A DNA stretch of 64,000 nt from Candidatus Omnitrophota bacterium (GCA_016935525.1 JAFGQU010000016.1:32342-96341), one strand, 5' to 3'. Shown: positions 16,899-63,278, counted from the first letter of the stretch. The notes: generated from the sequence alone by a model not told the origin. Numbers and translations: made by a program.

Positions 16899-16908
16899 TT
16901 AGTAAACG

Positions 16909-18612: not shown

Positions 18613-18639
18613 AGTGTAGGATAAAGAGAGGAATACATC

Positions 18640-44157: not shown

Positions 44158-44171
44158 AAAAGTTTTTTGAT

Positions 44172-44582: not shown

Positions 44583-44701
44583 TCTAAGATTACAGTGATG
44601 AGAGACTTTAGTGTTTTTAATCGCTGAAATCATGTGTGAATTATTGAAATCAAGTGCTGGTGTTATTATCCACCAGCACTAAAATAGTCCCCTTGTGAAA
44701 A

Positions 44702-46387: not shown

Positions 46388-47832
46388 TCATAAGTGAATT
46401 GTTCAACCAGCTTCCTCACGGGACTCCTTTCGCGCGACGAGAGGTGAGGGGTATTTCCCGGGATAGCCGTCAACTGAGCGGAGGCGAGGCCTTTTTCGTC
46501 ATCGAAGGAGATAAATTCGATATATTCAAAGCTCTTGAAGATATCAGCCGGAAAGTCTCTTTGTTGGTGGTAGAGGAAAAACATAAAGGGAAAATACCGT
46601 CTTCGATCAAAGATGTTCCGCTGGTGTATGTCGATGATGTCAAAAAAGAGTTTAACCGTGCCGTCGATATTTTTTATCCGGTTGATCTTAGCCGTTTCGG
46701 ATTTATCGGGGTGACCGGTACCAACGGTAAGACTACGACTGCCCATATCATGTATCAATTGATCCGTCATTTCGATCTGCCGGCTTCGCTTCTGGGAACG
46801 GTCCATTATTGTATCGAGGACGAATGCATCGATGCCCCTTATACTACGCCGGATTATTTTCTATTACGTAAACTTCTCTCGACGATAAAAGAAGATGATA
46901 TCCGCTATGTGGTAATGGAAGTCTCCTCTCACGGGCTGGTGCAGGAACGGATCTGGGGGATCCCTTTCCGACGGTGTATTTTTACCAATTTAAGCCATGA
47001 CCATCTTGATTATCACGGTACTATGGAAGAATATTTTCAGGCAAAAACATCGTTCTTTTCGATGAATCCGCAAAGCCTGGCAGTCTTGAACGTGGACGAT
47101 CCTTACGGGCAGAGGCTCCGGGAACGTATCCCTCACAAAAAGATCACGTATGCCACTTCCGGTGATGCCGATTTCCTGGCCAAAAATATCAAACCGTATC
47201 CCGGCGGTACGGATTTTACGTTACGGTTCAATCAGGAAGAGTTTCCGGTCCGTACCGGGCTTATCGGGATCCATAATGTCTCTAATATCCTGGCCGCCCT
47301 GGCGACCCTTTATTCTTACGGATTCGATATGAAAAAATGCATCCGCTATGTAAAATGTCTGAAAGCCCCTTGCGGGAGGATGGAGGAGGTTATCGAGAAC
47401 GTGTATGTGGATTATGCCCATACTCCCGATGCGTTGGAGAAAGCGCTCGTGACGTTAAAACAATCGGGATATAAAGAAGTGATCTGTGTATTCGGGTGCG
47501 GGGGTGACCGCGATAAAAGTAAACGTCCGGTTATGGGACAGATCGCGACCCAATATGCCGATGAGACTATTATTACGTCCGATAATCCCCGCAGCGAAGA
47601 TCCTCTGGCGATTTGCCGGGAAATCGAAAAAGGATGCTCACCGGGGAGGTACTCGGTAATTGCCGACCGTCGTCAGGCGATAACTCAGGCGTTGATGAGC
47701 CGGGATAGGCGTCCGCATTCGGCAGTATTGATCGCCGGGAAAGGCCATGAAGCGTACCAGATCGTCGGAGCCCGAAGGTTCCCGTTTAAAGACCAGGATG
47801 TGATCAGCGAGGTATATTGTAAAGAAAAATGA
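46384..47832 (+). CDS. murE: UDP-N-acetylmuramoyl-L-alanyl-D-glutamate--2,6-diaminopimelate ligase
   Basis: Mur ligase P-loop GVTGTNGKTTT; DNPR motif (SDNPRSEDP) indicates DAP specificity. Confidence 0.9.
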   Translation: MIISELFNQLPHGTPFARREVRGISRDSRQLSGGEAFFVIEGDKFDIFKALEDISRKVSLLVVEEKHKGKIPSSIKDVPLVYVDDVKKEFNRAVDIFYPVDLSRFGFIGVTGTNGKTTTAHIMYQLIRHFDLPASLLGTVHYCIEDECIDAPYTTPDYFLLRKLLSTIKEDDIRYVVMEVSSHGLVQERIWGIPFRRCIFTNLSHDHLDYHGTMEEYFQAKTSFFSMNPQSLAVLNVDDPYGQRLRERIPHKKITYATSGDADFLAKNIKPYPGGTDFTLRFNQEEFPVRTGLIGIHNVSNILAALATLYSYGFDMKKCIRYVKCLKAPCGRMEEVIENVYVDYAHTPDALEKALVTLKQSGYKEVICVFGCGGDRDKSKRPVMGQIATQYADETIITSDNPRSEDPLAICREIEKGCSPGRYSVIADRRQAITQALMSRDRRPHSAVLIAGKGHEAYQIVGARRFPFKDQDVISEVYCKEK

Positions 47833-49169
47833 GTATGTTTACCTATGAAGCTATGGAAGGGGTGATCCGCCCCAAAAAAGTCATAAAGAGGTCATTGTGG
47901 CGGACACCGCAGAAGATCTCTATCGATTCACGGACGATTTCGTCCGGTGACGGGTTTCTCGCCCTGCGCGGTAAGTGGCATGACGGCCACCGGTTTATTA
48001 AAGAAGCCTGCCGTAGGGGAGCGCGATTTGTTATCGCCCAGGACGAAACCGCGTGCCGTGACGTGAACGCCTGCTCTTATATCGTCGCCGATCCTTACCG
48101 GGCGTTAGAAAAGATCAGCTGTTATATAAGGAAAACGGTGAATCCCCGCGCGATCGCGGTGACCGGCTCGATCGGGAAGACCACGACGAAAGAAATAATC
48201 GCCTATCTTTTACAGCATACGTATTCGGTCCTTAAGAACGAGAAGACCGAGAATAATTTTCTGGGAGTCTCAAAGACCATATTACGGCTTGCCGATGAGG
48301 AATTCATTGTGTTAGAATTAGGGACTAATTCTCCCGGTGAGATCAAACAGCTTACTGCTATAGTGCGTCCGGATATAGGAGTGATCACCTATATCAAACC
48401 GGTGCATACTGAAAAATTACCGACACTCAGGGATATTTTTGAAGAAAAAAAAGAAATAGTCACCCGTTACGCTCACACAAAAGCGGTCCTCAATTATGAT
48501 GATCCGTATTTAAGAAAGATAAAGGCGAAAAAGAAAATCGTCTGGTTCGGTACTAAAAAAGGGGCGACGGTACGGGGCCGGTTTTTAAGCGGGAACGAAA
48601 AAGAAACGGTATTTTTAATCAATGGAAAATATAAAATGCGGCTTAAGACCCCGTTTCGTTTTTATATCTATAATACCCTGGCCGCCCTGGGCGCGGTGTA
48701 TGCTTCAGGCGAAGAATTGCCGGGATATATCGCGATGATGGATGAGTTCGGATTTAATTTCCCGATGCGGATGGAGGAGACCAGAAAACGAGGCATGTTT
48801 TTTATTAATGACGCCTATAATTCCAATCCGTTCGCGCTCAAAACGGCGCTTGAGAATCTTGATTGTTACCGTTACCCTAAAATAGCGGTGATCGGCGATA
48901 TGCGTGAACTGGGCCGGCTCGCCTTTGCGTGCCATCGTCACCTTGCCGCGGATATCCTGCGTCAGGATTTTGAATACGTGCTTACCCTGGGCTTTTACAG
49001 CCGGGTATTAAAAGAGAAACTCGACGCGTTAGGGTATCGCCGCGCGTTTCATTTCGCATCACATGATGAGGTGGTCGCTTTTCTTAAAAAACTGTCGCGT
49101 AAAAAATATCTGGTGTTCGTCAAAGGCTCCCGGGGAATGGAGATGGAGAAGATAATTGAGAAATACTGA
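47829..49169 (+). CDS. murF: UDP-N-acetylmuramoyl-tripeptide--D-alanyl-D-alanine ligase
   Basis: Mur ligase domains; P-loop TGSIGKTTTKE. Confidence 0.85.
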   Translation: MSMFTYEAMEGVIRPKKVIKRSLWRTPQKISIDSRTISSGDGFLALRGKWHDGHRFIKEACRRGARFVIAQDETACRDVNACSYIVADPYRALEKISCYIRKTVNPRAIAVTGSIGKTTTKEIIAYLLQHTYSVLKNEKTENNFLGVSKTILRLADEEFIVLELGTNSPGEIKQLTAIVRPDIGVITYIKPVHTEKLPTLRDIFEEKKEIVTRYAHTKAVLNYDDPYLRKIKAKKKIVWFGTKKGATVRGRFLSGNEKETVFLINGKYKMRLKTPFRFYIYNTLAALGAVYASGEELPGYIAMMDEFGFNFPMRMEETRKRGMFFINDAYNSNPFALKTALENLDCYRYPKIAVIGDMRELGRLAFACHRHLAADILRQDFEYVLTLGFYSRVLKEKLDALGYRRAFHFASHDEVVAFLKKLSRKKYLVFVKGSRGMEMEKIIEKY

Positions 49170-49259
49170 TAAATAGTCGCTGGTCGCTAGTCTCTAGTAT
49201 TTAGTGAAAAATGAAATAAAATACCAGAAACCAGAGACCGTAGACTGGAGATTTTAAAA

Positions 49260-50342
49260 ATGTTATATCATCTCTTCTATTCATTAAGCGATACATTTGG
49301 TATGTTTAATCTGTTCAAATATATTACGTTCCGCAGCGGTGCCAGTTTTATGTGCTCTTTTTTCTTGAGTTTTGTCCTCTGGCAATGGTTTAAAAGATAT
49401 TTCCGCCGGCTTAATTTCAAGGAATCTATCGATATGTACGGCCATGTCCATCTGGAAGCGCTGCATAAATCGAAGAAAGGGACCCCTACGATGGGCGGGC
49501 TTATCCTGATCGGCGCGGTCGGGATCTCTACGTTACTCTGGGCAAAATTGACGGTAAGTTTTGTCTGGTATGTGCTTTTGATTATGATCTTACTGGGAGC
49601 GTTGGGGTTCAGCGACGATTATCTCAAAAGTACCCGGGGGAAAGGATTAAGCCGGAAACATAAATTGATCGTGCAGATAGGGATCGGTGTTTTTTTAGGG
49701 TTGGTAATATTCCTTGACCGGAATATTTCTACTACTCTCGATGTCCCGTTTTTTAAAAAGGTCGTATTTGATCTGGGATTTTTTTATATATTCTGGACGG
49801 CGCTGGTCATAGTCGCCACATCGAACGCGGTCAATTTTACCGACGGCTTAGACGGGTTGGCGATCGGCGGGATCATTACTAATTCTCTGGTATTTGCGGG
49901 TTTGAGTTATTTAACCGGCCATCTCGAGTTCGCCAATTACTTGTTTATCCCGCATATCGCCGATGCCGGAGAACTCGCGGTGATCTGCGCGGCGCTCTTA
50001 GGGGCGGGGCTTGGGTTCCTCTGGTTTAATTCTTATCCGGCTGAAGTGTTCATGGGCGATACCGGAGCGTTGTCTTTAGGCGGGATCATCGGAGTGATCG
50101 CTCTGTTCATAAAAAAAGAGTTTCTTTTGATCATTGCCGGAGGGATATTTGTCCTTGAGGCTTTGAGCGTGGTATTACAGATATGTTCGGTAAGGATGAG
50201 CGGGCGGCGGATATTCCGTGCCGCGCCGTTACATCATCATTTTCAGTTGAAAGGATGGCCGGAATCAAAGATCATCATCCGGTTCTGGATAGTCTCTTTG
50301 ATCTGCGCGATGTGTGCGCTCTTAACCCTTAAATTACGATGA
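49260..50342 (+). CDS. mraY: Phospho-N-acetylmuramoyl-pentapeptide transferase
   Basis: 10-TM glycosyltransferase family 4; NAVNFTDGLDGLA motif. Confidence 0.93.
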   Translation: MLYHLFYSLSDTFGMFNLFKYITFRSGASFMCSFFLSFVLWQWFKRYFRRLNFKESIDMYGHVHLEALHKSKKGTPTMGGLILIGAVGISTLLWAKLTVSFVWYVLLIMILLGALGFSDDYLKSTRGKGLSRKHKLIVQIGIGVFLGLVIFLDRNISTTLDVPFFKKVVFDLGFFYIFWTALVIVATSNAVNFTDGLDGLAIGGIITNSLVFAGLSYLTGHLEFANYLFIPHIADAGELAVICAALLGAGLGFLWFNSYPAEVFMGDTGALSLGGIIGVIALFIKKEFLLIIAGGIFVLEALSVVLQICSVRMSGRRIFRAAPLHHHFQLKGWPESKIIIRFWIVSLICAMCALLTLKLR

Positions 50343-51610
50343 TGCTCGATTCATTTTCCCGTATCGGAATAATCGGTTTTAAACGGTCAGGTATCGCGCT
50401 GTGCCGGATGCTTCTTGATTATGGCAAACAGGTGAAAGTGAGCGATACGGGGTTTGAGGATTCTTTTTCGAAGATCCTGATCGAACGGTTAGGCGCCCGG
50501 GGGGTCCGGTTCGAGTTTGAAAAAAATTCTTGTGAATTTTTAAGTGATTGTGATCTCGTGGTCGTCTCACCCGGTGTCGATGTGGCCGCCTCAGGTATCG
50601 GTGAGTATACCTGTGCCCGCGGTATCCCGGTATACGGGGAGATGGAAGTGGCGTCCTGGGTAAACCGTGCCCGGATCGTCGCGATTACCGGTACCAACGG
50701 TAAGACTACCACTACGTTTCTCGCCTATAGCGTGCTTAAAAGTAAGTTTCCCGGTAGAGTCTATCTTGCCGGAAATATCGGGATCCCTTTTTCCGAAGTA
50801 GCTCCCCGTACTAAAGAAGGAGATATCGTGGTGCTTGAGGTGAGTTCTTTTCAATTGGAAACGATCAGGGATTTTCACCCTGCGGTGAGCTGTATTACCA
50901 ATATCGAACCCGATCATCTTGACCGGTACGCTCAGGTTTCTGACTATGTCCGCGCTAAAAAAAATATTTTTTCTAACCAGACCGCAAATGATTTCGCCGT
51001 ACTGAACAGGAATTGCGCTTTTTCTGACGAATTGAAATCGTCGATACATTCCCAGGTCCGTTATTTCAGCGATGAGTTCGAAAACGAAAATTATTCGGCG
51101 GTATCGGTCATTGCCGGAATATTCGCGATGACTAAAGAAGAATGCGCCCGGGTTTTCTCGGAATTTCGCGGCCTACCGCATCGGATGCAGAAAGTCAGAG
51201 AATTCGGGGGAGTCACTTTTATCAATGATTCTAAAGCGACGAATCCCTCTTCGACTATCTGGGCATTGAAGAATACCAAAGGTCCCGTGCGATTGATCGC
51301 CGGAGGGAAAGACAAAGGGTTGGAATACGGCGAGATCGCACCTTATCTTAATCAAGTAAAAAAGATATATCTTTACGGGCAGGCCCGCACGGCGATTACG
51401 CAGGCCCTCTCTTTTTATCCCGATATCGCCCGGTATGACGGTGTAGAGGAAGCTGTCCGTTCTGCGGCTCAGGATGCGCGTCGCGGTGAGGTGGTCCTTT
51501 TTTCTCCGATGTGTTCGAGTTTTGATCTTTTCAAAAATTATCAGGAACGCGGTAAATTTTTTATCCAAGTAGTAAATAATCTTAATGCAGAAACTTCAAC
51601 GAGAACGTAG
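50339..51610 (+). CDS. murD: UDP-N-acetylmuramoylalanine--D-glutamate ligase
   Basis: P-loop ITGTNGKTTTT; MurD domain order. Confidence 0.9.
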   Translation: MMLDSFSRIGIIGFKRSGIALCRMLLDYGKQVKVSDTGFEDSFSKILIERLGARGVRFEFEKNSCEFLSDCDLVVVSPGVDVAASGIGEYTCARGIPVYGEMEVASWVNRARIVAITGTNGKTTTTFLAYSVLKSKFPGRVYLAGNIGIPFSEVAPRTKEGDIVVLEVSSFQLETIRDFHPAVSCITNIEPDHLDRYAQVSDYVRAKKNIFSNQTANDFAVLNRNCAFSDELKSSIHSQVRYFSDEFENENYSAVSVIAGIFAMTKEECARVFSEFRGLPHRMQKVREFGGVTFINDSKATNPSSTIWALKNTKGPVRLIAGGKDKGLEYGEIAPYLNQVKKIYLYGQARTAITQALSFYPDIARYDGVEEAVRSAAQDARRGEVVLFSPMCSSFDLFKNYQERGKFFIQVVNNLNAETSTRT

Positions 51611-52688
51611 AAAAATATTTCTTACCGTTTTTGCCCTTTCTCTTTTCGGTCTATTAATGATTTACGAGGCTTCTTCGATCTATGCCTTGCGGTTGACCGG
51701 GGACAGCGGCTATTTTTTTAAACGTCAACTGGTATATTTCCTTTTAGGGATCGGTTTTTTCTTCGGGACACTGGCAGTTGATATCGAGTTTTTGAGAAAA
51801 AGATCGGCCGTTATTCTGGGAATCAATCTGTTCCTGCTGGTGCTTGCGCTTCTGGTGGGAAAACAGGTCGGCGGCGCGCGGCGCTGGTTGAGTCTATTCG
51901 GGTTCGGTATTCAGCCTTCGGAATTCCTGAAATTCTCTTTTCTGCTTTACGCGGTAGATTATCTTTATCGTAAACGGGGTTTTATCCGTAATTTTTCCCG
52001 GGGAATCCTTCCGCTTTTGGTGATCGGCGGGATAAGCGCGTTTTTGATAGTGTTAGGGCCGGACTTGGGTACGGTGATGTTCTGGTTAGGCTGGTTATTT
52101 CTCATGCTGTTTATTGCCAATGCCCGTAAAAAACACCTTTTGTATCTTGTCCTGGTCGGGATGCTTGCCGCCGGGGCGCTCGTGAAAGTGTATCCTTACC
52201 GTATGCAGCGGATTACTTCTTATCTTAATCCCTGGGCGGATTCGCAAGGGTCGGGATTCCAGCTTATTCAGTCGCAGATATCGTATGGTGCCGGAGGGAT
52301 TGCCGGGGTCGGGTTAGGGGAGAGCCGTCAGAAATTTCTGTTCCTGCCGGCAGCACACACTGATTTTATTTTTTCGATTATTGCCGAAGAGTTTGGTTTT
52401 ATCGGGGTTTCAATAGTGTTAGGATTGTTTTTTTTCCTGTTTTCCAGTATGTTCGAACTGACGTTACGGATCGGTGACCCTTTCCGACGGATGCTGGTCA
52501 TGGGTATCGTTCTGATAACAGGATCCGAGGTAATAGTCAATATCGGGGTCAGCTGCGGGCTGTTTCCGACAAAAGGGCTGTCGTTACCATTTGTAAGTTA
52601 CGGCGGAAGCAATTTGATCGTCCATTATATATTGTTAGGGCTACTGTTTCGTGCGACTAAAGAAGATGAAAATATTATTAGTCACTGA
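51585..52688 (+). CDS. ftsW: Peptidoglycan glycosyltransferase FtsW (SEDS family)
   Basis: 10-TM FtsW/RodA/SpoVE family; position within the dcw cluster. Confidence 0.88.
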   Translation: MQKLQRERRKIFLTVFALSLFGLLMIYEASSIYALRLTGDSGYFFKRQLVYFLLGIGFFFGTLAVDIEFLRKRSAVILGINLFLLVLALLVGKQVGGARRWLSLFGFGIQPSEFLKFSFLLYAVDYLYRKRGFIRNFSRGILPLLVIGGISAFLIVLGPDLGTVMFWLGWLFLMLFIANARKKHLLYLVLVGMLAAGALVKVYPYRMQRITSYLNPWADSQGSGFQLIQSQISYGAGGIAGVGLGESRQKFLFLPAAHTDFIFSIIAEEFGFIGVSIVLGLFFFLFSSMFELTLRIGDPFRRMLVMGIVLITGSEVIVNIGVSCGLFPTKGLSLPFVSYGGSNLIVHYILLGLLFRATKEDENIISH

Positions 52689-53706
52689 CCGCAGTGCCGG
52701 CCATCTTTTTCCTGCCCTTGCGCTTGCCCGGGCGGCCCAAACGGCTGGACATAACGTGACATTGTTTACGACATCGGCTTATCTTGGCGAGTATGTGCCC
52801 GAAGATATTGCCTGTATTGTCGGTAAAGACCTGAACCGAGCCTGGCTTTTAAGAGAAATGTTCCTGCGCAGCATCGAAGCGGTCCGGATTATTTTTTGTA
52901 TGCGGCCGGATAAGATCATCGGGTTCGGCGGCCGGGGCAGTTTATTTTTTATCCTCTTTGGCGCTCTCTTTTTACGTGATACCGGATTATACGAGCCGAA
53001 TGTCCGGATGGGGAAAGCGAACCGGTTCCTGCGGCACCTGGTAAGGGCAATATGGTACGGGTTACCTCCGCACAATATCACCGCTACGATGAAATCTGCC
53101 GGTATTCCCCGGCATCCCGGTATCCGGCATTATGAGAAAGACCAGGCCCGGAAAAAACTGGGCCTTGATCTTTATCGCCCGGTAGTATTTTGTTTCGGCG
53201 GAAGCCAGGGATCGGAGTTCCTTAATGAGACGTTTAAGAAAATAATTCAGGAAGATGTTTTTTTCCAGGCGATCCATCTTACCGGAGAGAGAGACTATTA
53301 TCAATTTTGTGAGTTTTATGATAAAATAATGAGAAAAGAATATTTTGTTAAGAAGTCTTATAAAGATATCGGCTTGTTATATTCGGCAGCTGATATCGTG
53401 ATCTGCCGGGCCGGCGCGTTAACTATTGCCGAAATCGTCTTTTTCCGGATCCCGGCAATTCTTATTCCTTATCCCGGCGCCGAAGGCCATCAACGGGCGA
53501 ATGCCCTTTTTTTAACCGGGAAGGGAGCTGCGTATTATTGTGAACAAAATGAATCGGCATATGCCGGTTGCGCCAGTATATTACGTGAGGCCTTTGCCGA
53601 TAGGCAAAAACTGGATATGATCAGAGAAAAACTGTCTTCAGTTTCGATAAGTGTCGATGACGGCACGTTCTATTCCAGTATATTTTCTGGCGAGAAAAAA
53701 GATTAA
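52666..53706 (+). CDS. murG: UDP-GlcNAc:lipid I GlcNAc transferase MurG (N-terminal G-loop divergent)
   Basis: C-terminal GT-B signature FGGSQGS ... ICRAGALTIAEI is conserved; the N-terminal GGTGGH reads DRSAGH. Confidence 0.75.
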   Translation: MKILLVTDRSAGHLFPALALARAAQTAGHNVTLFTTSAYLGEYVPEDIACIVGKDLNRAWLLREMFLRSIEAVRIIFCMRPDKIIGFGGRGSLFFILFGALFLRDTGLYEPNVRMGKANRFLRHLVRAIWYGLPPHNITATMKSAGIPRHPGIRHYEKDQARKKLGLDLYRPVVFCFGGSQGSEFLNETFKKIIQEDVFFQAIHLTGERDYYQFCEFYDKIMRKEYFVKKSYKDIGLLYSAADIVICRAGALTIAEIVFFRIPAILIPYPGAEGHQRANALFLTGKGAAYYCEQNESAYAGCASILREAFADRQKLDMIREKLSSVSISVDDGTFYSSIFSGEKKD

Positions 53707-53767
53707 AGGAAGAAAAACCGGCAATAGATGCTCTGCGGGACCTGAACGCAGAGTGGTTGATAGAATA

Positions 53768-55150
53768 ATGCAGCACGAGAATATCCTCACACATATCAAG
53801 AACATACATCTCATCGGTATCGGCGGGGTCGGGATGAGCGCCCTGGCGATGTTATTAAAAGAAAAAGGCTACCGGGTAAGCGGGTCCGATATCAGAGAGG
53901 GGTATTATTTTAAAAAGGCCGAAAGTTGCGGGATCAATGTCCTTACGGGACATCGTGCCGCCCATATCGAAGGTGCCGATATCGTCTGCTATTCTTCGGC
54001 GATCCGGCCGGATAATCCCGAGATAGTCGCTGCGCGAGCAAAAGGGATCGGTGTATACCGTCGTGCCGAGATCCTGGGGATGATCTCTCAGGGAGAGCGG
54101 GTCGTTGCGGTATGCGGCAGTCACGGTAAGACGACTACTTCGGCACTCCTGGTCTTTTTAGCGACGAGTTTAAAATATAAACCGACCGCATTCATCGGCG
54201 CTCAACCGTTAAATTACGAAAAAATGGCATGGTGGGGTAACGATTTTTTTATTATCGAAGCCGATGAGAGTGACGGGAGTTTTCATTCCTACTCGCCCTG
54301 GGTATCGATTCTCACCAATATCGATAACGAACATCTCGATTTCTACGGAACCCGAGAAAAACTGGACGAAAACTTCCTTGAGTTTGCCCGGCATACTCAG
54401 GAGCTTACTATCGGGTGGGGTGATGATGAAGCAGTATCCGGTATCCTGCGGCAAGTCCCTTCACTTTCTTACGGGAAAGATCCCGGGAATCCGGTCCGGG
54501 CCGAAGGGATTCACTACCGGGGCGGATATACTTATTTTGACCTTTATATAAAAGGCCGCTGTTACCCGCAGGTATGCCTGCCGCTTTTAGGCGAACATAA
54601 TGTGCTCAATACCCTTGCGGTAATAAGTTTTTTTGAATTTATCGGCGCGGATATAAAAGAATTGATCCGAGTGTTGCCGGAATTTAAAAGTACAAAACGG
54701 AGGTTCCAGCTTAAAAGTTGTGCCGAAGGGGTTATTTTTATCGATGATTATGCGCACCATCCTACCGAGATAAAAGCTACCTTAGCTGCCGCGCGTGCGC
54801 TTGGGTCCCGTCGACTGGTTGTGTTATTTCAACCCCATCGTTATTCCCGCCTGATGCGGCTTTTGAATGAGTTCGCTTTGTGTTTCGGTGCTGCCGATTG
54901 CCTGATCTTTACCGATGTGTACGCTGCGGGAGAAGAGAAACCTTACGATTTCGATGAACTGGCTCTGGGGCGCCGCCTGCAGGAAGGATTTAACGGTGAA
55001 CTGCATTATGTAGCTAAGGAAAAGTTGGCGGGGGAGGTATCGGGATTCATCAAAGAAGGAGATGTCGTGATCAGTGTAGGAGCCGGAGATATCAGTAAGA
55101 TTACCGATGAAGTTATCAGCGAATTTACCAGAACAAGAATTAAAGCCTGA
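53768..55150 (+). CDS. murC: UDP-N-acetylmuramate--L-alanine ligase
   Basis: IHLIGIGGVGMSALA N-terminal motif; P-loop CGSHGKTTTS; start moved to the ATG at 53768 (the ORF track extends upstream into the murG 3' end). Confidence 0.9.
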   Translation: MQHENILTHIKNIHLIGIGGVGMSALAMLLKEKGYRVSGSDIREGYYFKKAESCGINVLTGHRAAHIEGADIVCYSSAIRPDNPEIVAARAKGIGVYRRAEILGMISQGERVVAVCGSHGKTTTSALLVFLATSLKYKPTAFIGAQPLNYEKMAWWGNDFFIIEADESDGSFHSYSPWVSILTNIDNEHLDFYGTREKLDENFLEFARHTQELTIGWGDDEAVSGILRQVPSLSYGKDPGNPVRAEGIHYRGGYTYFDLYIKGRCYPQVCLPLLGEHNVLNTLAVISFFEFIGADIKELIRVLPEFKSTKRRFQLKSCAEGVIFIDDYAHHPTEIKATLAAARALGSRRLVVLFQPHRYSRLMRLLNEFALCFGAADCLIFTDVYAAGEEKPYDFDELALGRRLQEGFNGELHYVAKEKLAGEVSGFIKEGDVVISVGAGDISKITDEVISEFTRTRIKA

Positions 55151-55988
55151 TTACCCTTTAAGTGGTCTGACTACGATGAAGATCGGGGGGAATGCCCGGT
55201 ATTTCCTTGTACCTGCTACTCAGGAAGAACTTATCCGGAGTATCTTGAGATTGACCAAAGAAGGTATTCCTTATGTCGTGTTGGGGCGCGGGTCGAACAT
55301 CCTTATCTGCGACGACGTCATCCCCGCGGCGGTGATCAAGCTGGGTGAGGGGTTTAGGTGTATCAATCCTGTCTCATCCTACGTGTGTGCGGTGGGGGCT
55401 GCTACGGCTTTAGCGACCGTATTACGTTATTGTATCGAGAACCGTCTGGGGGGCCTTGAAATGTTCGCCGGGATCCCGGCGACAATCGGCGGCCTGGCCT
55501 GTATGAACGCATCGTGTTTCAAACGAGATTTCCTTTCGCTGGTCGAAGAAGTGCGGGTGATCGACCGGAAAGGGAAAGAACATTCGTTATCCCGCAATGT
55601 CATCCGTTACGGGTATCGTAAAAGTAATTTAGACCGGTTTATCATTACAGAAGTGGTCCTTAAATTTAAACCGGAAGAAAATGTAAAGAAAAATATTGCC
55701 GCTTTTCTCGCTCAAAGGATCGCTACTCAGGATTTCCGGTTTCCCAGCCTGGGATGTATTTTTAAAAATCCTCCCGGTTATTCGGCCGGGGCTTTGATCG
55801 ATGAATGCGGACTGAAAGGGTTGCGTATCGGCGATGCGGCGGTATCGGATATCCATGCCAACTTTATTGTGAATCATGGCCATGCCCGTGCCGGCGAGGT
55901 CGATCAGTTGATAAAAACGATTAAAGATAAAGTCTGGGATAAATTCAAGATCATGCTTTCCGAGGAGATCCGCCGATGGGGTTGTTGA
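55107..55988 (+). CDS. murB: UDP-N-acetylenolpyruvoylglucosamine reductase
   Basis: FAD-binding domain (TMKIGGNARYF ... VLGRGSNIL) plus MurB C-terminal domain. Confidence 0.85.
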   Translation: MKLSANLPEQELKPDYPLSGLTTMKIGGNARYFLVPATQEELIRSILRLTKEGIPYVVLGRGSNILICDDVIPAAVIKLGEGFRCINPVSSYVCAVGAATALATVLRYCIENRLGGLEMFAGIPATIGGLACMNASCFKRDFLSLVEEVRVIDRKGKEHSLSRNVIRYGYRKSNLDRFIITEVVLKFKPEENVKKNIAAFLAQRIATQDFRFPSLGCIFKNPPGYSAGALIDECGLKGLRIGDAAVSDIHANFIVNHGHARAGEVDQLIKTIKDKVWDKFKIMLSEEIRRWGC

Positions 55989-56926
55989 ATAAAGACAGAA
56001 TACGTATCGCGATATTACAGGGAGGAGTCTCCGGAGAACGGGAGATTTCTTTCCTTTCGGCACAACAGGTATACGTTTCCTGCCGGCATTTGGGATTAGA
56101 CGCGGTGCCGGTCACTATCGATACCAGAGACGCCAAAGAAATAGAACGGCTGTTGATCGATCAAGGTATTGAATTCGCTTTTATAGCGTTACATGGCGAA
56201 TTTGGCGAAGACGGTTCGATTCAAAAGATTCTGGATGGTATCGGGATTCCTTATACCGGTTCAGGGGCGGCCGCAAGTTACCTTGCGATGGATAAGATCG
56301 CTTCAAAAGAGCTGTTTTTGACTCACGGGATACCTACGCCGGATTTTACGATAGTAGAAAGAAAGAACCTTTCGGTCAAGGTCGATTGCTATCCTAAGGT
56401 CATCAAACCGCATTTCGGCGGGTCCAGCCAGGGGATCCATATAGTGCATAATATCGGAGAGCTTAAAGAAGCTTTGGCCGATGCCGCTTCGTTCAGTGAA
56501 CGGGTGTTAATCGAACAATATATCGAAGGTACCGAGTATACCGTAGGGATACTCGATGAACAGCCGTTGGGGGTAGTCCAGATCGTCCCGCGCAATGGCT
56601 GGTACGATTTTACGGCAAAATATGCCGATGATATGACCGACTTTATCGCGCCGGCGCCGCTGGAAAAAAAGTTGTACCGGCAGGTACAGGAGTATGCTCA
56701 AAAAGCGCATACAACCCTTGGCTGTCGTCATTTCTCCCGGGTCGATCTGCGCCTTGATGTCCAGATGCGGCCGTACGTGTTGGAGGTGAATTCTATTCCC
56801 GGGCTTACTTCGCACAGTCTGCTTCCTCTTTCGGCCCGGTGTGATAATATCGGTTTTGATGAACTTATGCGCAGGATGATAGAACTCGCTCTTAGAGATA
56901 CGTTCAAGATAAAGGCGGGACGATAG
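55976..56926 (+). CDS. ddl: D-alanine--D-alanine ligase
   Basis: ATP-grasp; N-terminal IAILQGGVSGEREISFLS; C-terminal EVNSIPGLT motif. Confidence 0.9.
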   Translation: MGLLNKDRIRIAILQGGVSGEREISFLSAQQVYVSCRHLGLDAVPVTIDTRDAKEIERLLIDQGIEFAFIALHGEFGEDGSIQKILDGIGIPYTGSGAAASYLAMDKIASKELFLTHGIPTPDFTIVERKNLSVKVDCYPKVIKPHFGGSSQGIHIVHNIGELKEALADAASFSERVLIEQYIEGTEYTVGILDEQPLGVVQIVPRNGWYDFTAKYADDMTDFIAPAPLEKKLYRQVQEYAQKAHTTLGCRHFSRVDLRLDVQMRPYVLEVNSIPGLTSHSLLPLSARCDNIGFDELMRRMIELALRDTFKIKAGR

Positions 56927-56928
56927 GG

Positions 56929-57690
56929 ATGGGACGCCGCCGCGGCCGGCCCAGGTCATTTAAACGTCGGATACCGAAAATCCCTTTTCCGGTTGTGGTG
57001 GCCCTTTTGATCCTTATCTTTACGGCCGTTGCCGCCAGTTACGCCCTCAAAAGGATTACTCCGCTTACCTTTTTCAGAGTGAAGACCGTTCGTATCGACG
57101 GGAACGAGGATGGGCGACAGATCAAAACAATCGTAAGCGACTATGCGTTGGGTAAATCGTTACTGTCCCTTGATCTGAAAAGTATCCGCACTACCGTCAT
57201 GCAACGTTATCCGGATCTTGAGGAACTTACTTTTCTTAAAGAATTTCCCGATACGGTTGATGTCAATGTCTTGCGCAGTAAAGCTTTCTTACAGATAAAA
57301 AGCGACCGTTATTATATTTTAAACGAAGCGTTGAAGATCATCGAGGAAGAACGGGGCCCGCGATCGGGACTGGTGACTGTGGAAGTAGACGGGTTTACCC
57401 AGGATATCGCTGCCGGAGCCTATATTGATGACGAACGGGTAAGGCAGGCCGCTCGTCTGTTAGAAGTGCTGTTACGTTCCGACTTATTTTCGCCTACCAC
57501 CATTCTTGCTCATCGTTTGGATAATCTGTCGTTTTTTACTCACGGTACAAAAGTGATATTAGGAGAGCAGGATTTCGAAAAAAAGCTTAAGATATTAGAA
57601 GCATTAATGCGTGAGAATTACGATAACGATTTTTCTACATTACGTTACATCGATCTGCGTTACAGTAAAGTATATATTGGGAAACGATGA
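56929..57690 (+). CDS. ftsQ: Cell division protein FtsQ/DivIB (TM plus POTRA)
   Basis: Arg-rich N-terminus followed by a TM (VVVALLILIFTAVAASYAL) and a POTRA-like region; canonical position after ddl. Confidence 0.65.
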   Translation: MGRRRGRPRSFKRRIPKIPFPVVVALLILIFTAVAASYALKRITPLTFFRVKTVRIDGNEDGRQIKTIVSDYALGKSLLSLDLKSIRTTVMQRYPDLEELTFLKEFPDTVDVNVLRSKAFLQIKSDRYYILNEALKIIEEERGPRSGLVTVEVDGFTQDIAAGAYIDDERVRQAARLLEVLLRSDLFSPTTILAHRLDNLSFFTHGTKVILGEQDFEKKLKILEALMRENYDNDFSTLRYIDLRYSKVYIGKR

Positions 57691-58832
57691 AGCAGGGAAT
57701 GTGCGGTATTGCCCTAGAAGATGGGATACTCTCGGTATTGCTTTGTGCCCGTGAGCGGGCCCAGTTGATCCCGTGTGCCGAATTCTCTCTGCCCGCCGGA
57801 AGTGACGATCTCCTTGAGGTTCTTGGTAAAAATATCGAGAAACTCGACGAAGAAATCACAAAACACGAAGAAGAAAAATCGATCGTCGTAGATCAGGTAT
57901 ATTGTGTGTTGCCGTTTGGCTGGCAACGGTTCAAGATCGCCGACGATATATTCCCTTTGGCGAAAGATAAAAAGAAAGCCGTATTCGCAAAAGAGATCGT
58001 TCAGGCTAAAGACCATATGGAAGGGGTAATGCTGGATTGGAACGAACGGTGTATCCATAATATCATCCTGGAATATCATCTTGATGGGGAGGTCTTCCGC
58101 CAATTGCCGGCACAGGTTTCCGCCCGGAAGCTGAAACTTAAATCACTTCTGGTGTCGATCGAACGAAAGATCTTTTCGGAAATTCAAGCTCTTTTTCATA
58201 ACATTGACCGGCAATTTATGGCGTTTATCTGGTGGCCGCTGGCTGAGTTGAGCGTAAATGCTTCCGATAAGATCCCGGTCCCTTATGTAACCGTAGATAT
58301 ACGCCGTCACGAGACTTATTGTTCGATCCTTTCTGATGAAGGTATCGTGTTCGAGAAATTCGATATGAACAGCGTGCAGATCCAGCGTAAGATCGCCGAA
58401 AAATTTTCGCTTTCACCCCAGGTATGTCAGGATATCCTTGACCATTACGTAGGGTTTCAAAGTGTGATGTCCGGTAAAGAGGTGGTGATGAAAGAGGCCG
58501 GCCGTTATGTGAGTATAAATACGACGGCGATCAGCCAGTATTTACAGGAAATCCTCAGAGAAGAATTATCGGAAATAATCGAGTTTATAAAAAGATATAT
58601 CAGCCAGGAATATAAAATACTCTTTTTGGGGCAATTTGCCGTATTAAAAGGGTTTACCGCATTTATCCGCGGCCAGTTCCCGGGATTACAGACCGAAATC
58701 TCTTCTTTTCGTTCTTCTTCGTCTTACCTCTTAGGATGTGTGAAATATGGCTGCCAGCGGTATCTGGAACGCACCATCCCTCAGGCCGGCATCTTTAACC
58801 GCCTGATGAATATGTACCGCGATTATTTTTGA
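57687..58832 (+). CDS. Divergent FtsA-like (actin/ASKHA-fold) protein at the ftsA position
   Basis: 381 aa; sits where ftsA is expected, after ftsQ; only a weak resemblance to FtsA motifs, and shorter than canonical FtsA. Confidence 0.4.
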   Translation: MKQGMCGIALEDGILSVLLCARERAQLIPCAEFSLPAGSDDLLEVLGKNIEKLDEEITKHEEEKSIVVDQVYCVLPFGWQRFKIADDIFPLAKDKKKAVFAKEIVQAKDHMEGVMLDWNERCIHNIILEYHLDGEVFRQLPAQVSARKLKLKSLLVSIERKIFSEIQALFHNIDRQFMAFIWWPLAELSVNASDKIPVPYVTVDIRRHETYCSILSDEGIVFEKFDMNSVQIQRKIAEKFSLSPQVCQDILDHYVGFQSVMSGKEVVMKEAGRYVSINTTAISQYLQEILREELSEIIEFIKRYISQEYKILFLGQFAVLKGFTAFIRGQFPGLQTEISSFRSSSSYLLGCVKYGCQRYLERTIPQAGIFNRLMNMYRDYF

Positions 58833-58835
58833 ACT

Positions 58836-60794
58836 ATGGTAAATGAGATTTTACTCAAACAATTATTGCGTACTATGAGGATTGCCTTTATCAATGCCGG
58901 GATGTATCATGAAGAACATCCCTTAGTGGCAAAGTCGATCGATGCGTTAAGTGACACGTTACATGAAGTGCTCAAAGACCAGATGTCGGTAGAAATAGGG
59001 TTTACTTCCGAACATATTATGGTCGGTACAGAAGAGTTCAAAGGCGACCGGTTATATGAAGAAGAGGCGCGTTATTTTCATATCCGTAAAGTGAAGTCTA
59101 TCCGTATTTCGACCGGTGTCGATACGTCGGAACTGGCTCTTTTTGTGAAGGAATTATCTGCTTCGCCCCGCGCCCTCGATGAAGCCGGAGGATTGAAGGT
59201 CTTCATAGAAAAAAATGACTTACCTCATATCCATATCAGCGCGCTCGATTATTCTCCTTTCTTAGGGAGCAGCGGCCAGGAGATCTCCGAAGACGTGTGG
59301 AATTATCTTTTGGGAGAAGTAGGAACGCTTCAAACCCAGGAAGACACTAATGGATTCATTTCCCGGTTAACCCAGGCGATTGAGCAAATGAACTTCCATG
59401 AATTGAAAAGCGATTCAGAGGATTTTCTGCGCCTGCAGGATATTGTCGGGCAATTAAAAGAAAAGATGCCGGATGTCTCTCAGTCGCTGGGAAAAGAAGT
59501 GCTTAAAGCGGTCCTTAAGAAGCAGGAACAGATCCAGGATGAAAAAGTGTTAGAGCAGGTGCGGTCTCTTTTTTCCCGGTTAAGCCGTAAAAGTCAAATC
59601 GATACGCTTTGGAACGAAGTGTTCGGCAGCAAGAGTTTCAACCCGGTGATCTTTTCGGTTTTTGACCGGTTGGTGGAAAAAGATAATAAAGAAGAATATC
59701 TCCAAGAATGGGATCAAAAACTGAAAGACCATACCGAACTTGTCAACGACCCCCATTTGCGTGAAAGAGTGAAAAATATGCTGGTGATGGAAGAAACCAA
59801 TGTCTATATGCCCCAGATGTACCGGTATACGCTTACGTTGCTGTCATCTCGAATAGGGGTCGACCTTAAGATGATGCTTAACAAAAACGCTTTATTCCGT
59901 AATTATCTTTTTGCTCTTTTGAACCTGTTGTCATGGGAAGGCCACTGTGAAAGCATTATCCCGCTATGTGATGAGTTGCTCAAAAATACCGAAGAGGTTT
60001 CTCATGTCCACCAGATAGAATTATTGCGCCAGTTTCATCAGGCGCTGAGTATGAAACTGGTTCACCTCGACGATGCCCGGATAAAAGAAGAGATCCGTCA
60101 GCGGGAAGGAGTGCTGTTAACTAAGATCGAAGAAGTCATAGTGGAAGGAACGATCACGATAGACGAGGATACGTTCGAATATTTTATCGGTATCCTTGAA
60201 CGTAGCCAATTTTCCTCAGACCTGTATTTTAAAAAAATATTCGGATTACATCCGCGGCGGCAACATGTGGTGCGGCTTTTTTTGAAGTTCTTCCCGCACC
60301 TCAATAATGCCTTCCTTGAACAATTAAAAAAAGAAAGTACAAACGTAGGGTTTTTAAAAGAGGTCATCGAGGCGTTGAACAAGGTAGATACCCGCCAGGT
60401 ATACTCTATCCTGAAAAATATTTTTTTAACGGCAAATCCTCTGGTAAAAATAGAGGTGCTTAAGGCGATGCAGAATTCTTCTTACGTCGAAGATGATTTT
60501 GTCCTTGAGAATTTACGGCAGGATAACGTATTTCTCAAAAAAGAATTGGTTGCGATAGTAAAGAAAAAAACTCCCGAAGTACAGAAGAAGGCGGGCGAAC
60601 TGTTGCTCTCGGTGTTTAACCTTTTCGGTATCAATAACCGTATTCTTCTTGAGAACATCCGGCTTATCCGTGACGCGCAGCTCGCCAGCAGCCGGGAAAA
60701 ACTCGCGGATCTATTGAAATGGTTTTTGTGTTGGGGCGGTACTCCTTTAAAAACCGAGATTGAACGGACCCTTTCCGAATTCAGGAAACTGTAA
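58836..60794 (+). CDS. Hypothetical 652-aa helical protein sharing an N-terminal domain with the downstream HD-GYP protein; no HD motif
   Basis: The N-terminal ~110 aa are paralogous to the N-terminus of the 60794 protein (YHxxHP ... pattern); its stop overlaps the next start (TAATG). Confidence 0.45.
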   Translation: MVNEILLKQLLRTMRIAFINAGMYHEEHPLVAKSIDALSDTLHEVLKDQMSVEIGFTSEHIMVGTEEFKGDRLYEEEARYFHIRKVKSIRISTGVDTSELALFVKELSASPRALDEAGGLKVFIEKNDLPHIHISALDYSPFLGSSGQEISEDVWNYLLGEVGTLQTQEDTNGFISRLTQAIEQMNFHELKSDSEDFLRLQDIVGQLKEKMPDVSQSLGKEVLKAVLKKQEQIQDEKVLEQVRSLFSRLSRKSQIDTLWNEVFGSKSFNPVIFSVFDRLVEKDNKEEYLQEWDQKLKDHTELVNDPHLRERVKNMLVMEETNVYMPQMYRYTLTLLSSRIGVDLKMMLNKNALFRNYLFALLNLLSWEGHCESIIPLCDELLKNTEEVSHVHQIELLRQFHQALSMKLVHLDDARIKEEIRQREGVLLTKIEEVIVEGTITIDEDTFEYFIGILERSQFSSDLYFKKIFGLHPRRQHVVRLFLKFFPHLNNAFLEQLKKESTNVGFLKEVIEALNKVDTRQVYSILKNIFLTANPLVKIEVLKAMQNSSYVEDDFVLENLRQDNVFLKKELVAIVKKKTPEVQKKAGELLLSVFNLFGINNRILLENIRLIRDAQLASSREKLADLLKWFLCWGGTPLKTEIERTLSEFRKL

Positions 60795-62128
60795 TGGCTC
60801 AAGAGATCGAAAAACTTATCCACGAATTGTTTGCTTTTATGCAAACGTTTTATGTCTACCCTCAAGGGCATCCTAAACTTAAGGAAGGGATTGAACGGGT
60901 CTACGGGATGCTTAAAGATGCGTTTGCCCAACGCGACGAACTCGTGATCGGTATCGTCGGCGATGAAGTCGCATTCGAGAAAGAAATATTTTTTGAATTG
61001 AGTAAACGGTTCGAGACACTGATTCATCAATTGAATAACAAACAGATAGAAAGAATAGTTTTTCTTAAAAATGTGACTCCCGACGAACTGGTGCGGTTTC
61101 TGAAAGCTTTGACCGAACGCAGCAAGGACTTAGAGTCTTATCAGGAATATTTGACTATGCTGGGCGTGGAGAACATCCGTATCGGGAAAATGACTCATGC
61201 CGGGCAACTGCTCCCTCCCGGCGCTCACGGGGAAATAACCGTCCCGATAAAGAAGCCTGATCATAAAGAGGAGGGAGGGGAAATAGATACGGTATTCGAT
61301 TCTTTCTCTAATATCCTTAAAGGAGAAGACCTGGATTTTATCAAACTCCAGATGACTTTGAACGGTTTTTTAACCGATGCCTACCAACAGAAGAAACTTT
61401 TTAGAGAAGCCGGTTTTTTAAGGAATTATGATGTAAGTACGTTTTTGCATTCGGTGAACGTATCGCTGCTATCGATGTATTTCGTTTCAGCGTTGGGATA
61501 CAGCAAAGAAGAGATCTTACAGGTCGGAGTCGCCGGCCTCCTTCATGATATGGGGAAGATCGCGGTGAGCCGCGATATCATCCAGAAACCGGGGGCTTTG
61601 ACCGAAGAAGAGTTCGGGAAGATCAAAAACCATTCTCAACTGGGCGCGAAGATCCTGCTTAAATACGTATATTCTTTAGGGGTGTTGCCGGTAGTGGTGG
61701 CGCTGGAACATCATGTCTCTTATGATTTAAGCGGGTACCCTCAGCTGGATTATCCCGTAAAACCGAACATAATCTCTTCACTGGTGGGGATTTGTGATTT
61801 TTACGACGCGTTACGTTCCCGGCGGGCCTATAAAAAGGAATATCTGCCCGAGAAGATCTATGAGATCATGATGCAGGAGAAAGGAAAACGGTTCGATCCG
61901 TATCTTATAGACCGGTTTTTCCAGGAATTAGGCGTGTATCCTGTCGGTACGAACGTGAGATTATCCGACGGAAGTATCGCCATCGTCAGATCCCAGAATA
62001 AAGAGGATATTTTCCGTCCCCACGTGGAAATAATCAGTCCTGCCGAATTACACGGGACTTACCGTGACCTGAGTAAGCTTCAAGAGATATCCATTAAAGA
62101 ATCGGTATCCTCAAGCCCTGGACCATAA
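60794..62128 (+). CDS. HD-GYP domain cyclic-di-GMP phosphodiesterase family protein
   Basis: HD motif LLHDMGK; HHVSYDLSGYP (HD-GYP signature) in the C-terminal half. Confidence 0.8.
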   Translation: MAQEIEKLIHELFAFMQTFYVYPQGHPKLKEGIERVYGMLKDAFAQRDELVIGIVGDEVAFEKEIFFELSKRFETLIHQLNNKQIERIVFLKNVTPDELVRFLKALTERSKDLESYQEYLTMLGVENIRIGKMTHAGQLLPPGAHGEITVPIKKPDHKEEGGEIDTVFDSFSNILKGEDLDFIKLQMTLNGFLTDAYQQKKLFREAGFLRNYDVSTFLHSVNVSLLSMYFVSALGYSKEEILQVGVAGLLHDMGKIAVSRDIIQKPGALTEEEFGKIKNHSQLGAKILLKYVYSLGVLPVVVALEHHVSYDLSGYPQLDYPVKPNIISSLVGICDFYDALRSRRAYKKEYLPEKIYEIMMQEKGKRFDPYLIDRFFQELGVYPVGTNVRLSDGSIAIVRSQNKEDIFRPHVEIISPAELHGTYRDLSKLQEISIKESVSSSPGP

Positions 62129-62255: not shown

Positions 62256-63278
62256 ATGAAACTGAGTTCCAATCAACTTCAGAAAATACCGGGAAAATTT
62301 AAGGGGAAAAAAGTGCTGGTCGTAGGGGACCTCATCCTTGACCATTACATTTTCGGTGATGCCGAACGTATTTCTCCGGAGGCTCCGGTCCCGGTAGTAT
62401 GGGCTAATAAAGAGTCATTTGTCGGCGGGGGAGCGGTGAACGTGGCCCTTAACCTGATCGATCTGGGTGCTCGGGTCTCGTTGTGCGGAGTAGTCGGGAA
62501 TGACCATTTTGGTAAGGTGTTGGTATCGCTCGTGAAAGGAAAGGGGATCGATACCGGTTTCGTCGCAAAAGACCGTAGCCGGCCCACTACCTTAAAGAGC
62601 AGGGTAGTTGCCGTACAGCAACAGGTTGTCCGTATCGACTGGGAATCTCAGGAATTTCTTCCGCTTTCTATCAATAGCCGGGTACTGGACCGGATTAAAA
62701 AGAGCATTCACCAGTTTGACGGGGTCATTATTGAAGATTATGGTAAAGGAGTGATCAACCCGTCGTTAGTCGACCAGTTGGTACGGATATGTAAAAAATA
62801 CGATAAGATCATTACCGTCGATCCTAAAGAAGAGCATTTCGATTATTATGAGAATGTAACGGCAATGACTCCTAACTTAAAAGAAGCCCAGATCGCCGGC
62901 CAGATGACGGTGCGCAGTAAAGAACAGATCAACCTTCTCGGTGAAGTCATTATGGACCGGTTTAAACTAAAAGGCCTTTTGATCACGATGGGAAAAGAGG
63001 GGATGCGTTTGTTCTTAGATAATGGTAAGAGTTTTCATATCCCTACGTATGCGTTGGAAGTGTATGATGTCACCGGAGCCGGAGACACGGTTGTCGCAGT
63101 ATTTACTCTTGCGCTTTTGTCCGGAGCTTCCTATCTTGAGGCGGCAGTAATCGCCAATTTTGCTGCCGGAGTGGTGGTCGGCAAACTGGGAGCCGCTACC
63201 GCGACTAAAGATGAGATCATTCAGCGTATCAAAAAAAATAAAGATCCGATTTATCTGCATACAAAATGGAAATTGTAG
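62256..63278 (+). CDS. hldE: D-glycero-beta-D-manno-heptose-7-phosphate kinase (RfaE domain I / HldA-type, kinase only)
   Basis: PfkB-family sugar kinase; VLVVGDLILDHYIFG ... TGAGDTVVA motifs; 340 aa with no adenylyltransferase domain. Confidence 0.8.
   Translation: MKLSSNQLQKIPGKFKGKKVLVVGDLILDHYIFGDAERISPEAPVPVVWANKESFVGGGAVNVALNLIDLGARVSLCGVVGNDHFGKVLVSLVKGKGIDTGFVAKDRSRPTTLKSRVVAVQQQVVRIDWESQEFLPLSINSRVLDRIKKSIHQFDGVIIEDYGKGVINPSLVDQLVRICKKYDKIITVDPKEEHFDYYENVTAMTPNLKEAQIAGQMTVRSKEQINLLGEVIMDRFKLKGLLITMGKEGMRLFLDNGKSFHIPTYALEVYDVTGAGDTVVAVFTLALLSGASYLEAAVIANFAAGVVVGKLGAATATKDEIIQRIKKNKDPIYLHTKWKL

Follow-up and report, generated by a model that had tools for sequence, protein, structure and literature searches.

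An FtsA derivative with degenerate nucleotide-binding motifs and an HD-GYP gene pair at the end of a Candidatus Omnitrophota dcw cluster

We analysed a 64 kb stretch of a Candidatus Omnitrophica metagenome-assembled genome (MAG; JAFGQU010000016.1:32342-96341), hereafter called the window, together with related loci of 1.7-21 kb each (numbered with the prefix L). The window carries a division and cell wall (dcw) cluster in which ftsQ is followed by a gene for a 381 amino acid (aa) protein derived from FtsA. Genes for a 652-aa helical protein and a 444-aa HD-GYP phosphodiesterase come next, in the place where ftsZ would be expected. The best overall explanation is a dcw end that lacks FtsZ, an FtsA-derived scaffold and a protein pair acting on cyclic dinucleotides. 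We give this explanation a probability of roughly 0.55.

Results

The dcw cluster and the genes that follow it

The genes concerned are these.

42834..57690, + strand: dcw cluster (mraZ, rsmH, ftsL-like, ftsI, murE, murF, mraY, murD, ftsW, murG, murC, murB, ddl, ftsQ)
56929..57690, + strand: ftsQ, 253 aa, one transmembrane segment at about aa 18-36
57687..58832, + strand: FtsA-derived actin-fold protein, 381 aa, degenerate nucleotide-binding motifs
58836..60794, + strand: 652-aa cytoplasmic helical protein, seen here only in Omnitrophota-type loci
60794..62128, + strand: HD-GYP phosphodiesterase, 444 aa

A sequence-only reading of this DNA, made by a model without database searches, had described the order from mraZ to ftsQ as fully canonical. 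This description holds. Pfam matches in the window identify rsmH, ftsI, murE, murF, mraY, ftsW, murG and ftsQ. We named murD, murC, murB and ddl through their syntenic orthologues in L001/L002, which have the expected Pfam families. The assignment of mraZ (42834-43265) is based on position and sequence. That of the ftsL-like gene (44172-44582) is based on position; its 136-aa product has an N-terminal hydrophobic stretch and gave zero matches in family searches. The ftsQ product exceeds the Pfam cut-offs for POTRA_1 (27.9 bits) and FtsQ_DivIB_C (22.7 bits), with a hydropathy maximum of 2.66. The genes for peptidoglycan synthesis and the dcw genes are therefore retained as a complete and collinear cluster.

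The open reading frames (ORFs) of the last genes were found at exactly the positions given earlier and are closely packed. The stop codon of ftsQ overlaps the start of the 381-aa gene as ATGA, 3 nucleotides (nt) separate the 381-aa gene from the 652-aa gene, and the start of the HD-GYP gene overlaps the 652-aa gene stop by 1 nt (TAATG). An assembly artefact is ruled out, as the gene order recurs unchanged in L001, an independent Logan assembly, and in further genomes.

The gene after ftsQ encodes an FtsA derivative

The sequence of the 381-aa protein is that of MBN2483695.1 (locus tag JXD21_05805), encoded on a 103.5 kb contig of a Candidatus Omnitrophica MAG. It falls below the curated FtsA thresholds of Pfam (PF14450 and PF02491) and NCBIfam (TIGR01174). 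Thus, it scored 12.8 bits against SHS2_FTSA (cut-off 25.4) and had no match to PF14450 in Pfam, and the TIGR01174 score was 29.8 bits (cut-off 175.85, E=3e-7). Searching the PDB with the single sequence gave zero matches. With a profile, 114 matches were obtained among 1.84 billion representatives; about 70 of them form one family of ~380-aa proteins. All family members whose names were looked up are Candidatus Omnitrophica or Omnitrophota. Weaker matches from the same search exceed the Pfam FtsA and SHS2_FTSA thresholds.

We built a family profile from 55 sequences for PDB searches and for AlphaFold (AF2). The profile matched FtsA structures 7q6d (E=7e-17) and 3wqt/3wt0 (~1e-12, residues 4-338), and PilM at only E=8e-4. 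The AF2 model has a mean local confidence (pLDDT) of 93.8 and a predicted template modelling score (pTM) of 0.90; a model from a two-sequence alignment (pLDDT 40.5) was discarded. In a Foldseek search of the PDB the best 19 matches of the model were all FtsA (E ~1e-21, TM 0.70). PilM was next (1e-14, TM ~0.53), followed by MreB. The model has the actin/ASKHA fold, with a 1C (SHS2) subdomain replacing 1B.

57927..58166, + strand: 1C (SHS2) subdomain, aa 81-160, beta-alpha-beta-beta-beta in the model, within the FtsA-aligned region

Family conservation picks out E112, L116, H124 and P141 as near-invariant in 1C, and F257, E265 and Y274 in the 2B region. Given the profile matches, the AlphaFold and Foldseek results and the 1C/SHS2 insertion at 81-160, the gene directly 3' of ftsQ, where ftsA is expected, encodes a true derivative of FtsA. 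The sequence-only reading had called it weakly FtsA-like. That is accurate for its sequence scores and understates its ancestry. The structural comparison with FtsA, PilM and MreB proposed at the same time has now been made, and places FtsA first.

The C terminus of the protein resembles that of FtsA.

58788..58829, + strand: C-terminal amphipathic helix GIFNRLMNMYRDYF, candidate membrane-targeting sequence, helix 369-380 in the model

In the AF2 model this helix is preceded by a lower-confidence linker. Its hydrophobic moment is 0.57 (family mean 0.58), above the 95th percentile of internal segments (0.54); the membrane-targeting tail of E. coli FtsA has a moment of 0.62. Residues Y380 and F381 are invariant across the family, with the end ...YRDYF here and ...YKEYF in the consensus. 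The resulting ...Y[KR][ED]YF helix is similar to the ...RKEF tail of E. coli FtsA. The predicted helix, its moment and the invariant YF make a role in membrane targeting probable.

We consider it very improbable that the protein is a PilM-type or other actin-like ATPase, not derived from FtsA, that sits after ftsQ by chance. PilM also has an actin-like fold and a 1C-type subdomain, PilM and MreB are among the Foldseek matches, and the Pfam FtsA models stay below threshold. However, the structural and profile matches to PilM are much weaker than those to FtsA, and the closest sequences outside the family are Pfam-verified FtsAs that are also adjacent to ftsQ. The genomic context of PilM differs as well; the window already has a PilM-like gene, at 12854-14323 in a pilus/secretion cluster. 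Finally, the C-terminal tail is like the membrane-targeting tail of FtsA, and PilM is not known to have such a tail. On structure, profile, context and C-terminal tail, a PilM identity was rejected.

Compared with canonical FtsA (E. coli 7Q6D, S. aureus 3WQT and T. maritima 4A2A), the protein shares the fold with 1C/SHS2 (TM ~0.70), the gene position directly after ftsQ at the dcw end, and a C-terminal amphipathic helix with an aromatic ...EYF/...KEF tail. Conversely, it is only 10-16% identical, is ~30-40 residues shorter and is below the Pfam and TIGR thresholds. It also lacks the phosphate-1, phosphate-2 (DxGGGT) and adenosine (GG) motifs, and no ftsZ is next to its gene.

The nucleotide-binding site is degenerate across the family

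Motifs were compared in an alignment of the family with Pfam-verified FtsAs and, as a reference, E. coli FtsA. At phosphate-2, the canonical DIGGGT is replaced by DIRRHET in the 381-aa protein, with a family consensus of N-I-G/R-Y-x-x. The HMMER alignment to 7q6d likewise sets the DIRRHET residues opposite VVDIGGGT. At phosphate-1, DxG[TS] has become GIALED (DxG to ALE), the glycine being D or E in most members. The adenosine GG is G-Q (LGQF) in the 381-aa protein and G-R in the family. Among the motif glycines of the 381-aa protein only G315 survives. The canonical motifs are visible in the same alignment in P0098, a Pfam-verified FtsA (DIGGGTTD). Loss of the FtsA nucleotide-binding motifs is thus family-wide, and the 381-aa protein probably lacks canonical ATP binding.

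Less degenerate FtsAs of the Omnitrophota type are represented by P0069, P0077 and P0081 (loci L006-8, L014 and L015); only P0081 bears an Omnitrophica name. Like the 381-aa protein, they follow ftsQ, end in ...EYF, have no ftsZ downstream and have lost GGGT at phosphate-2 (DIGSELT, NLGRAKL and DVGDTLT). Unlike it, they score above the Pfam FtsA and SHS2 thresholds, the phosphate-1 DxG and the adenosine GG are intact in most of them, and the 650-aa/HD-GYP pair is not next to them. In a neighbour-joining (NJ) tree, which is rough and carries no support values, the degenerate family is one clade nested among the Omnitrophota-type FtsAs. The tree and the Pfam-positive FtsAs without GGGT fit a nucleotide site that may have been progressively relaxed once FtsZ was lost.

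No ftsZ was found at the end of the cluster

The sequence-only reading had noted that ftsZ is not within 6 kb downstream. Scans of the window and of its relatives bear this out over a longer distance, since ftsZ is neither in the 5.2 kb remaining in the window nor within 10 kb downstream in the relatives. No tubulin signature was present in any frame of the 64 kb window, and a broader signature gave none in the window and related loci. A phmmer search with E. coli FtsZ (E up to 10) returned zero matches in the window and 23 loci, ~370 kb in all. The rest of the window carries uvrA, a TPR protein, a pilus/secretion cluster, priA, fmt, ligA, a Xer-type recombinase, truB, ribF and others, with zero Z-ring factors among these remaining genes.

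Synteny in relatives gives the same picture; the standard ftsQAZ order occurs in none. In every Omnitrophota lineage read, the ftsA homologue is the last dcw gene. These include six genomes bearing the FtsA-like gene and the pair (the window, L002/L004, L005, L009, L012 and L013), the short contigs L024 and L025, which stop inside the 650-aa gene, and the three lineages with Pfam-positive FtsA (L006-8, L014 and L015). At no locus was ftsZ the adjacent partner. In L015 (GCA_018400015.1, 8001-16208) the short Pfam-positive ftsA is followed by genes for a yggS(ylmE)-like product, proC, PNP_UDP_1, ileS, a dksA-type zinc finger, lspA and rluD. We take this to be the block found downstream of ftsZ in Firmicutes, as in the B. 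subtilis map. Because ftsA directly precedes this block, it looks like ftsZ was excised in place in the L015 lineage.

Published surveys are divided. Pende et al. (2021) named Omnitrophica among the FtsZ-less phyla of the Planctomycetes-Verrucomicrobia-Chlamydiae (PVC) group, in a figure legend and a supplementary table. In that table both FtsZ and SepF are 'NA' in four of the five 'Omnitrophica' genomes, and FtsA is kept in three of these four. OLB16 is the sole FtsZ-positive 'Omnitrophica' genome (Pende et al., 2021), and Rivas-Marin et al. (2016) also found FtsZ in OLB16 only. According to Seymour et al. (2023), the placement of the OLB16/SURF_12 lineage in Omnitrophica was a misclassification. 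Since OLB16 is the only FtsZ-positive genome and was later called misclassified, the FtsZ-positive listing of Omnitrophica in reviews appears to rest on it. The supplements of Henriques 2025 contain zero Omnitrophota rows.

Two outcomes had been proposed from the sequence, namely relocation of ftsZ or division without it. The second is favoured by the dcw ends, by Pende et al. (2021) and by the status of OLB16, and the data are still compatible with the first. We consider it likely that ftsZ is absent from the source genome. It is missing from the ancestral slot and, according to the published surveys, probably from the phylum.

Alternatively, ftsZ could lie elsewhere, the 381-aa protein could be a fast-evolving but ordinary FtsA that tethers FtsZ, and the two downstream genes could be unrelated neighbours. 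The near-invariant 2B residues listed above leave room for such a function, as the peptide-binding surface may persist, and the sequence covered amounts to 64 kb of the MAG and 1.7-21 kb per relative. The reports of FtsZ or conserved dcw genes in Omnitrophota (Henriques 2025; Rivas-Marin/Devos reviews) point the same way. We regard this alternative as unlikely. It conflicts with the four FtsZ-negative genomes of Pende et al. (2021), the fifth being the misclassified OLB16. The adjacency of ftsA and ftsZ, normally highly conserved, is missing in all lineages read, and the ATP motifs required for canonical FtsA behaviour are gone.

The 652-aa and HD-GYP proteins share an N-terminal domain

The 652-aa protein has zero transmembrane segments and six database relatives only. 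No significant match was found in Pfam, NCBIfam or the PDB, profile searches included. A paralogous relationship between this protein and the HD-GYP protein had been proposed. The domains concerned are listed below.

58848..59252, + strand: N-terminal ~135-aa domain of the 652-aa protein (YxxxHP motif), common to the HD-GYP protein
60800..61198, + strand: counterpart of that N-terminal domain in the HD-GYP protein, aa 3-135
61397..61930, + strand: HD-GYP catalytic domain, aa 202-379

BLASTP between the 652-aa and 444-aa proteins was not significant. Conversely, hhalign aligned residues 5-139 of the former with residues 3-135 of the latter (95.3% probability, E=2.2e-8), and reciprocal hidden Markov model (HMM) matches between the 650-aa and HD-GYP families reached 1e-6 to 1e-12 in most loci. 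An alignment of 23 sequences has an invariant Y-x3-H-P motif, with the Y and H common to both families. The two proteins thus have a homologous N-terminal domain that profiles detect and BLASTP does not, and the proposed paralogy stands for these ~135 aa only. A database search with the shared domain returned 13 fragments only, and the sole named one is from Omnitrophota. In L005 (11150-13106) the 650-aa orthologue is split into ORFs of 539 aa and 129 aa and the translation has a run of X; this is probably a masked stretch or an assembly defect, not a real frameshift.

The HD-GYP protein was correctly recognised from its sequence. It exceeds the Pfam threshold for HD_5 (47.9 bits, cut-off 27.2), matches HD (43.9 bits) and has the HD and HHxxxDxxGYP motifs. 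The relevant positions are H219, H251-D252, H280, H306-H307, GYP 314-316 and D335/D338. The motifs LLHDMGK and EHHVSYDLSGYP are conserved across three orthologues. Residues 202-379 match PDB 4mcw, the Persephonella protein PmGH, at E=1.8e-22. The H/HD/H/HH/D positions are kept, as read against the residues that we take to be the metal ligands of PmGH. Ser215 aligns with what is presumably the extra acidic ligand of the third metal in PmGH. Because serine occupies this position, the alignment suggests a two-metal site. The protein is apparently catalytically competent as a cyclic-dinucleotide phosphodiesterase, as judged from these residues.

Characterised relatives with structures are PmGH (4MCW), V-cGAP3 of V. 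cholerae (5Z7C) and PA4781 (4R8Z). The HD, H, HH...D..GYP and downstream D positions align with theirs and, as noted above, HD_5 is over threshold. The HD-GYP protein differs in that a REC or GAF sensor is lacking and its N terminus is formed by the family-less domain of ~135 aa that it has in common with the neighbouring 652-aa protein.

Linkage of the pair to the FtsA-like gene

The 650-aa gene is directly upstream of the HD-GYP gene wherever upstream sequence is present; the informative loci are L002, L005, L009, L012, L013, L016-L020, L022 and L023. The degenerate FtsA family was found in nine independent contexts. In eight of them (the window, L002, L005, L009, L012, L013, L024 and L025) ftsQ, the FtsA-like gene and the 650-aa gene occur in series. 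The FtsA-like proteins in these contexts are 20% to 55% identical, and both main branches of the NJ tree are represented.

The linkage has exceptions. In L010/L011 (Omnitrophica bacterium 4484_70.1) the FtsA-like gene is alone, between a Macro/NUDIX gene and comEC. In L019, L020 and L023 the pair is away from the dcw cluster among unrelated metabolic genes; the neighbours there are hydrogenase-like or glutamate dehydrogenase genes and DUF1846/beta-CASP-like genes. The three lineages with Pfam-positive FtsA have other neighbours after ftsA. Because the pair occurs outside the dcw cluster, the FtsA-like gene can occur alone and the Pfam-positive lineages differ, the pair is a module in its own right. 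Its proximity to the degenerate FtsA family is a strong tendency, since less degenerate FtsA lineages have no pair next door, but not absolute.

These data bear on a further possibility, that the FtsA derivative serves FtsZ-less division and the pair is a general cyclic-dinucleotide module whose position after the dcw cluster is incidental. In its favour, post-dcw genes vary widely between lineages, the pair also occurs beside metabolic and DUF1846/beta-CASP-like genes, and the FtsA-like gene can be solitary. Conversely, adjacency has survived the divergence described above in eight of nine contexts and on both main branches, the spacing is tight (a 3-nt gap and a 1-nt overlap), and the less degenerate, Pfam-positive lineages (n=3) have no pair next door. 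We hold an incidental position to be possible, although doubtful. The earlier suggestion that the three genes are division-associated signalling components gains from the eight contexts and loses from the exceptions; a role for the pair in division signalling is a plausible hypothesis.

Some recurrent neighbours were noted. In L009, L012 and L013, which are more distant Omnitrophota genomes, the three genes are followed by a gene for a stand-alone receiver domain and a second HD-GYP gene.

L009:14571-16129, L012:12393-13941 and L013:12619-14226: receiver (119-122 aa) and shorter HD-GYP protein (393-395 aa)

An MGDG-synthase-like glycosyltransferase is next in all three, with a lipid A acyltransferase in two of the three; the L012 sequence ends at the glycosyltransferase. 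The MGDG_synth gene of the window is elsewhere, at 29286-30398. In L019 (9507-13172), L016 (2809-5821) and L022/L023, a ~507-aa protein and/or a metallo-beta-lactamase/beta-CASP-like protein of 464-482 aa recurs downstream. The ~507-aa protein (start MKK.GFDNEKYLKEQT) is presumably DUF1846-like. Two TPA MAGs that carry the three genes, L004 and L005, are titled 'uncultured Planctomycetia bacterium', which is probably an inconsistency of taxonomy mapping.

Discussion

A possible mechanism and its weight

The 1C subdomain of FtsA recruits late divisome proteins. In the mechanism that we propose, the FtsA derivative would be a constitutive, membrane-bound scaffold that organises the septal peptidoglycan machinery (FtsQ/L and FtsW/I), acting without a Z-ring and through its well-conserved 1C subdomain. 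The 652-aa and HD-GYP genes, both for cytoplasmic proteins and encountered here in Omnitrophota-type loci only, are translationally coupled to the FtsA-derived gene. The shared ~135-aa domain may pair their products with each other, or may dock both on a common partner. The pair could then tie the turnover of cyclic-di-GMP, or of cyclic GMP-AMP (cGAMP), to division and septation.

Several points weigh against this mechanism. The interaction of the three products and their role in division are inferred, as is the loss of ATP binding, which derives from motifs. For the 652-aa protein, neither a fold nor a family could be recognised in Pfam, NCBIfam or the PDB. The scan for ftsZ covered 64 kb of the source MAG, with which a relocated gene is compatible. 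Two reviews (Rivas-Marin/Devos) and Henriques 2025 credit Omnitrophota with FtsZ or conserved dcw genes. To these are added the separations of pair and FtsA-like gene described above, in L010/L011, in L019, L020 and L023, and in the three Pfam-positive lineages.

Comparison with other FtsZ-less bacteria and significance

Planctomycetota and Chlamydiota offer the closest comparison. The likeness is that of PVC-associated bacteria in which peptidoglycan synthesis and dcw genes are kept and no ftsZ is detected in the cluster. The difference is that FtsA is reported missing there; here, a complete collinear dcw cluster is accompanied by an FtsA derivative. Tentatively, and with well under even odds, Omnitrophota could be a third FtsZ-less lineage beside these two. 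It would have a full dcw cluster, a nucleotide-independent FtsA scaffold, and, in the ftsZ slot, a lineage-specific pair that docks on this scaffold and gates septation via cyclic dinucleotides.

The usual view of FtsA is of a protein that tethers FtsZ to the membrane and regulates it. A widespread lineage with an FtsA derivative, the FtsQ/L/W/I machinery and peptidoglycan synthesis, yet apparently without FtsZ, would be a natural experiment on FtsA alone, and on how the septal wall synthase can be organised without a Z-ring. That Omnitrophota lack FtsZ was already on record, in the figure legend and supplementary table cited above, and other papers contradict it. The split in the literature appears traceable to the one genome OLB16. 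We did not find in the literature either the retained FtsA as a derivative without nucleotide motifs, or a lineage-specific 650-aa/HD-GYP pair habitually next to a degenerate FtsA. The degenerate ATP site, the conserved 1C and the neighbouring pair define concrete proteins for study.

Other features of the window and related loci

62256..63278, + strand: PfkB-family sugar kinase (HldE/RfaE-type position), PfkB 139.7 bits, opening the heptose/Kdo genes

Lipopolysaccharide genes had been described after the HD-GYP gene. They are represented in the window by this kinase, and in the same-order relatives L001/L002 it is followed by kdsB, kdsA, kdsD and kdsC-type genes.

Within the dcw cluster, the longest murC ORF opens with GTG, encodes 499 aa and shares 56 nt with the end of murG (53651-53800). 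MurC is ~460 aa in the relatives, so translation probably begins further in, at an ATG close to MQHENIL. Several Omnitrophota dcw clusters have a Peptidase_MA_2 gene between murG and murC.

L009:5118-5924, L012:3337-4128, L013:3188-4000, L014:3196-4023 and L015:3290-4069: Peptidase_MA_2 inserts

This insert is not present in the window or its closest relatives, and may serve as a synteny marker for sub-lineages.

The pilus/secretion cluster of the window (12854-19872) encodes the PilM-like protein, a secretin, a T2SSE ATPase and a T2SSF platform protein. The PilM-like protein is unusually long, at 489 aa, and its PilM_2 match is confined to the N-terminal 200 residues. Further along, a 501-aa ORF (22672-24177) with zero Pfam matches precedes a gene at 24189-25691 in which Memo-like and AMMECR1 domains are fused in one 500-aa protein.

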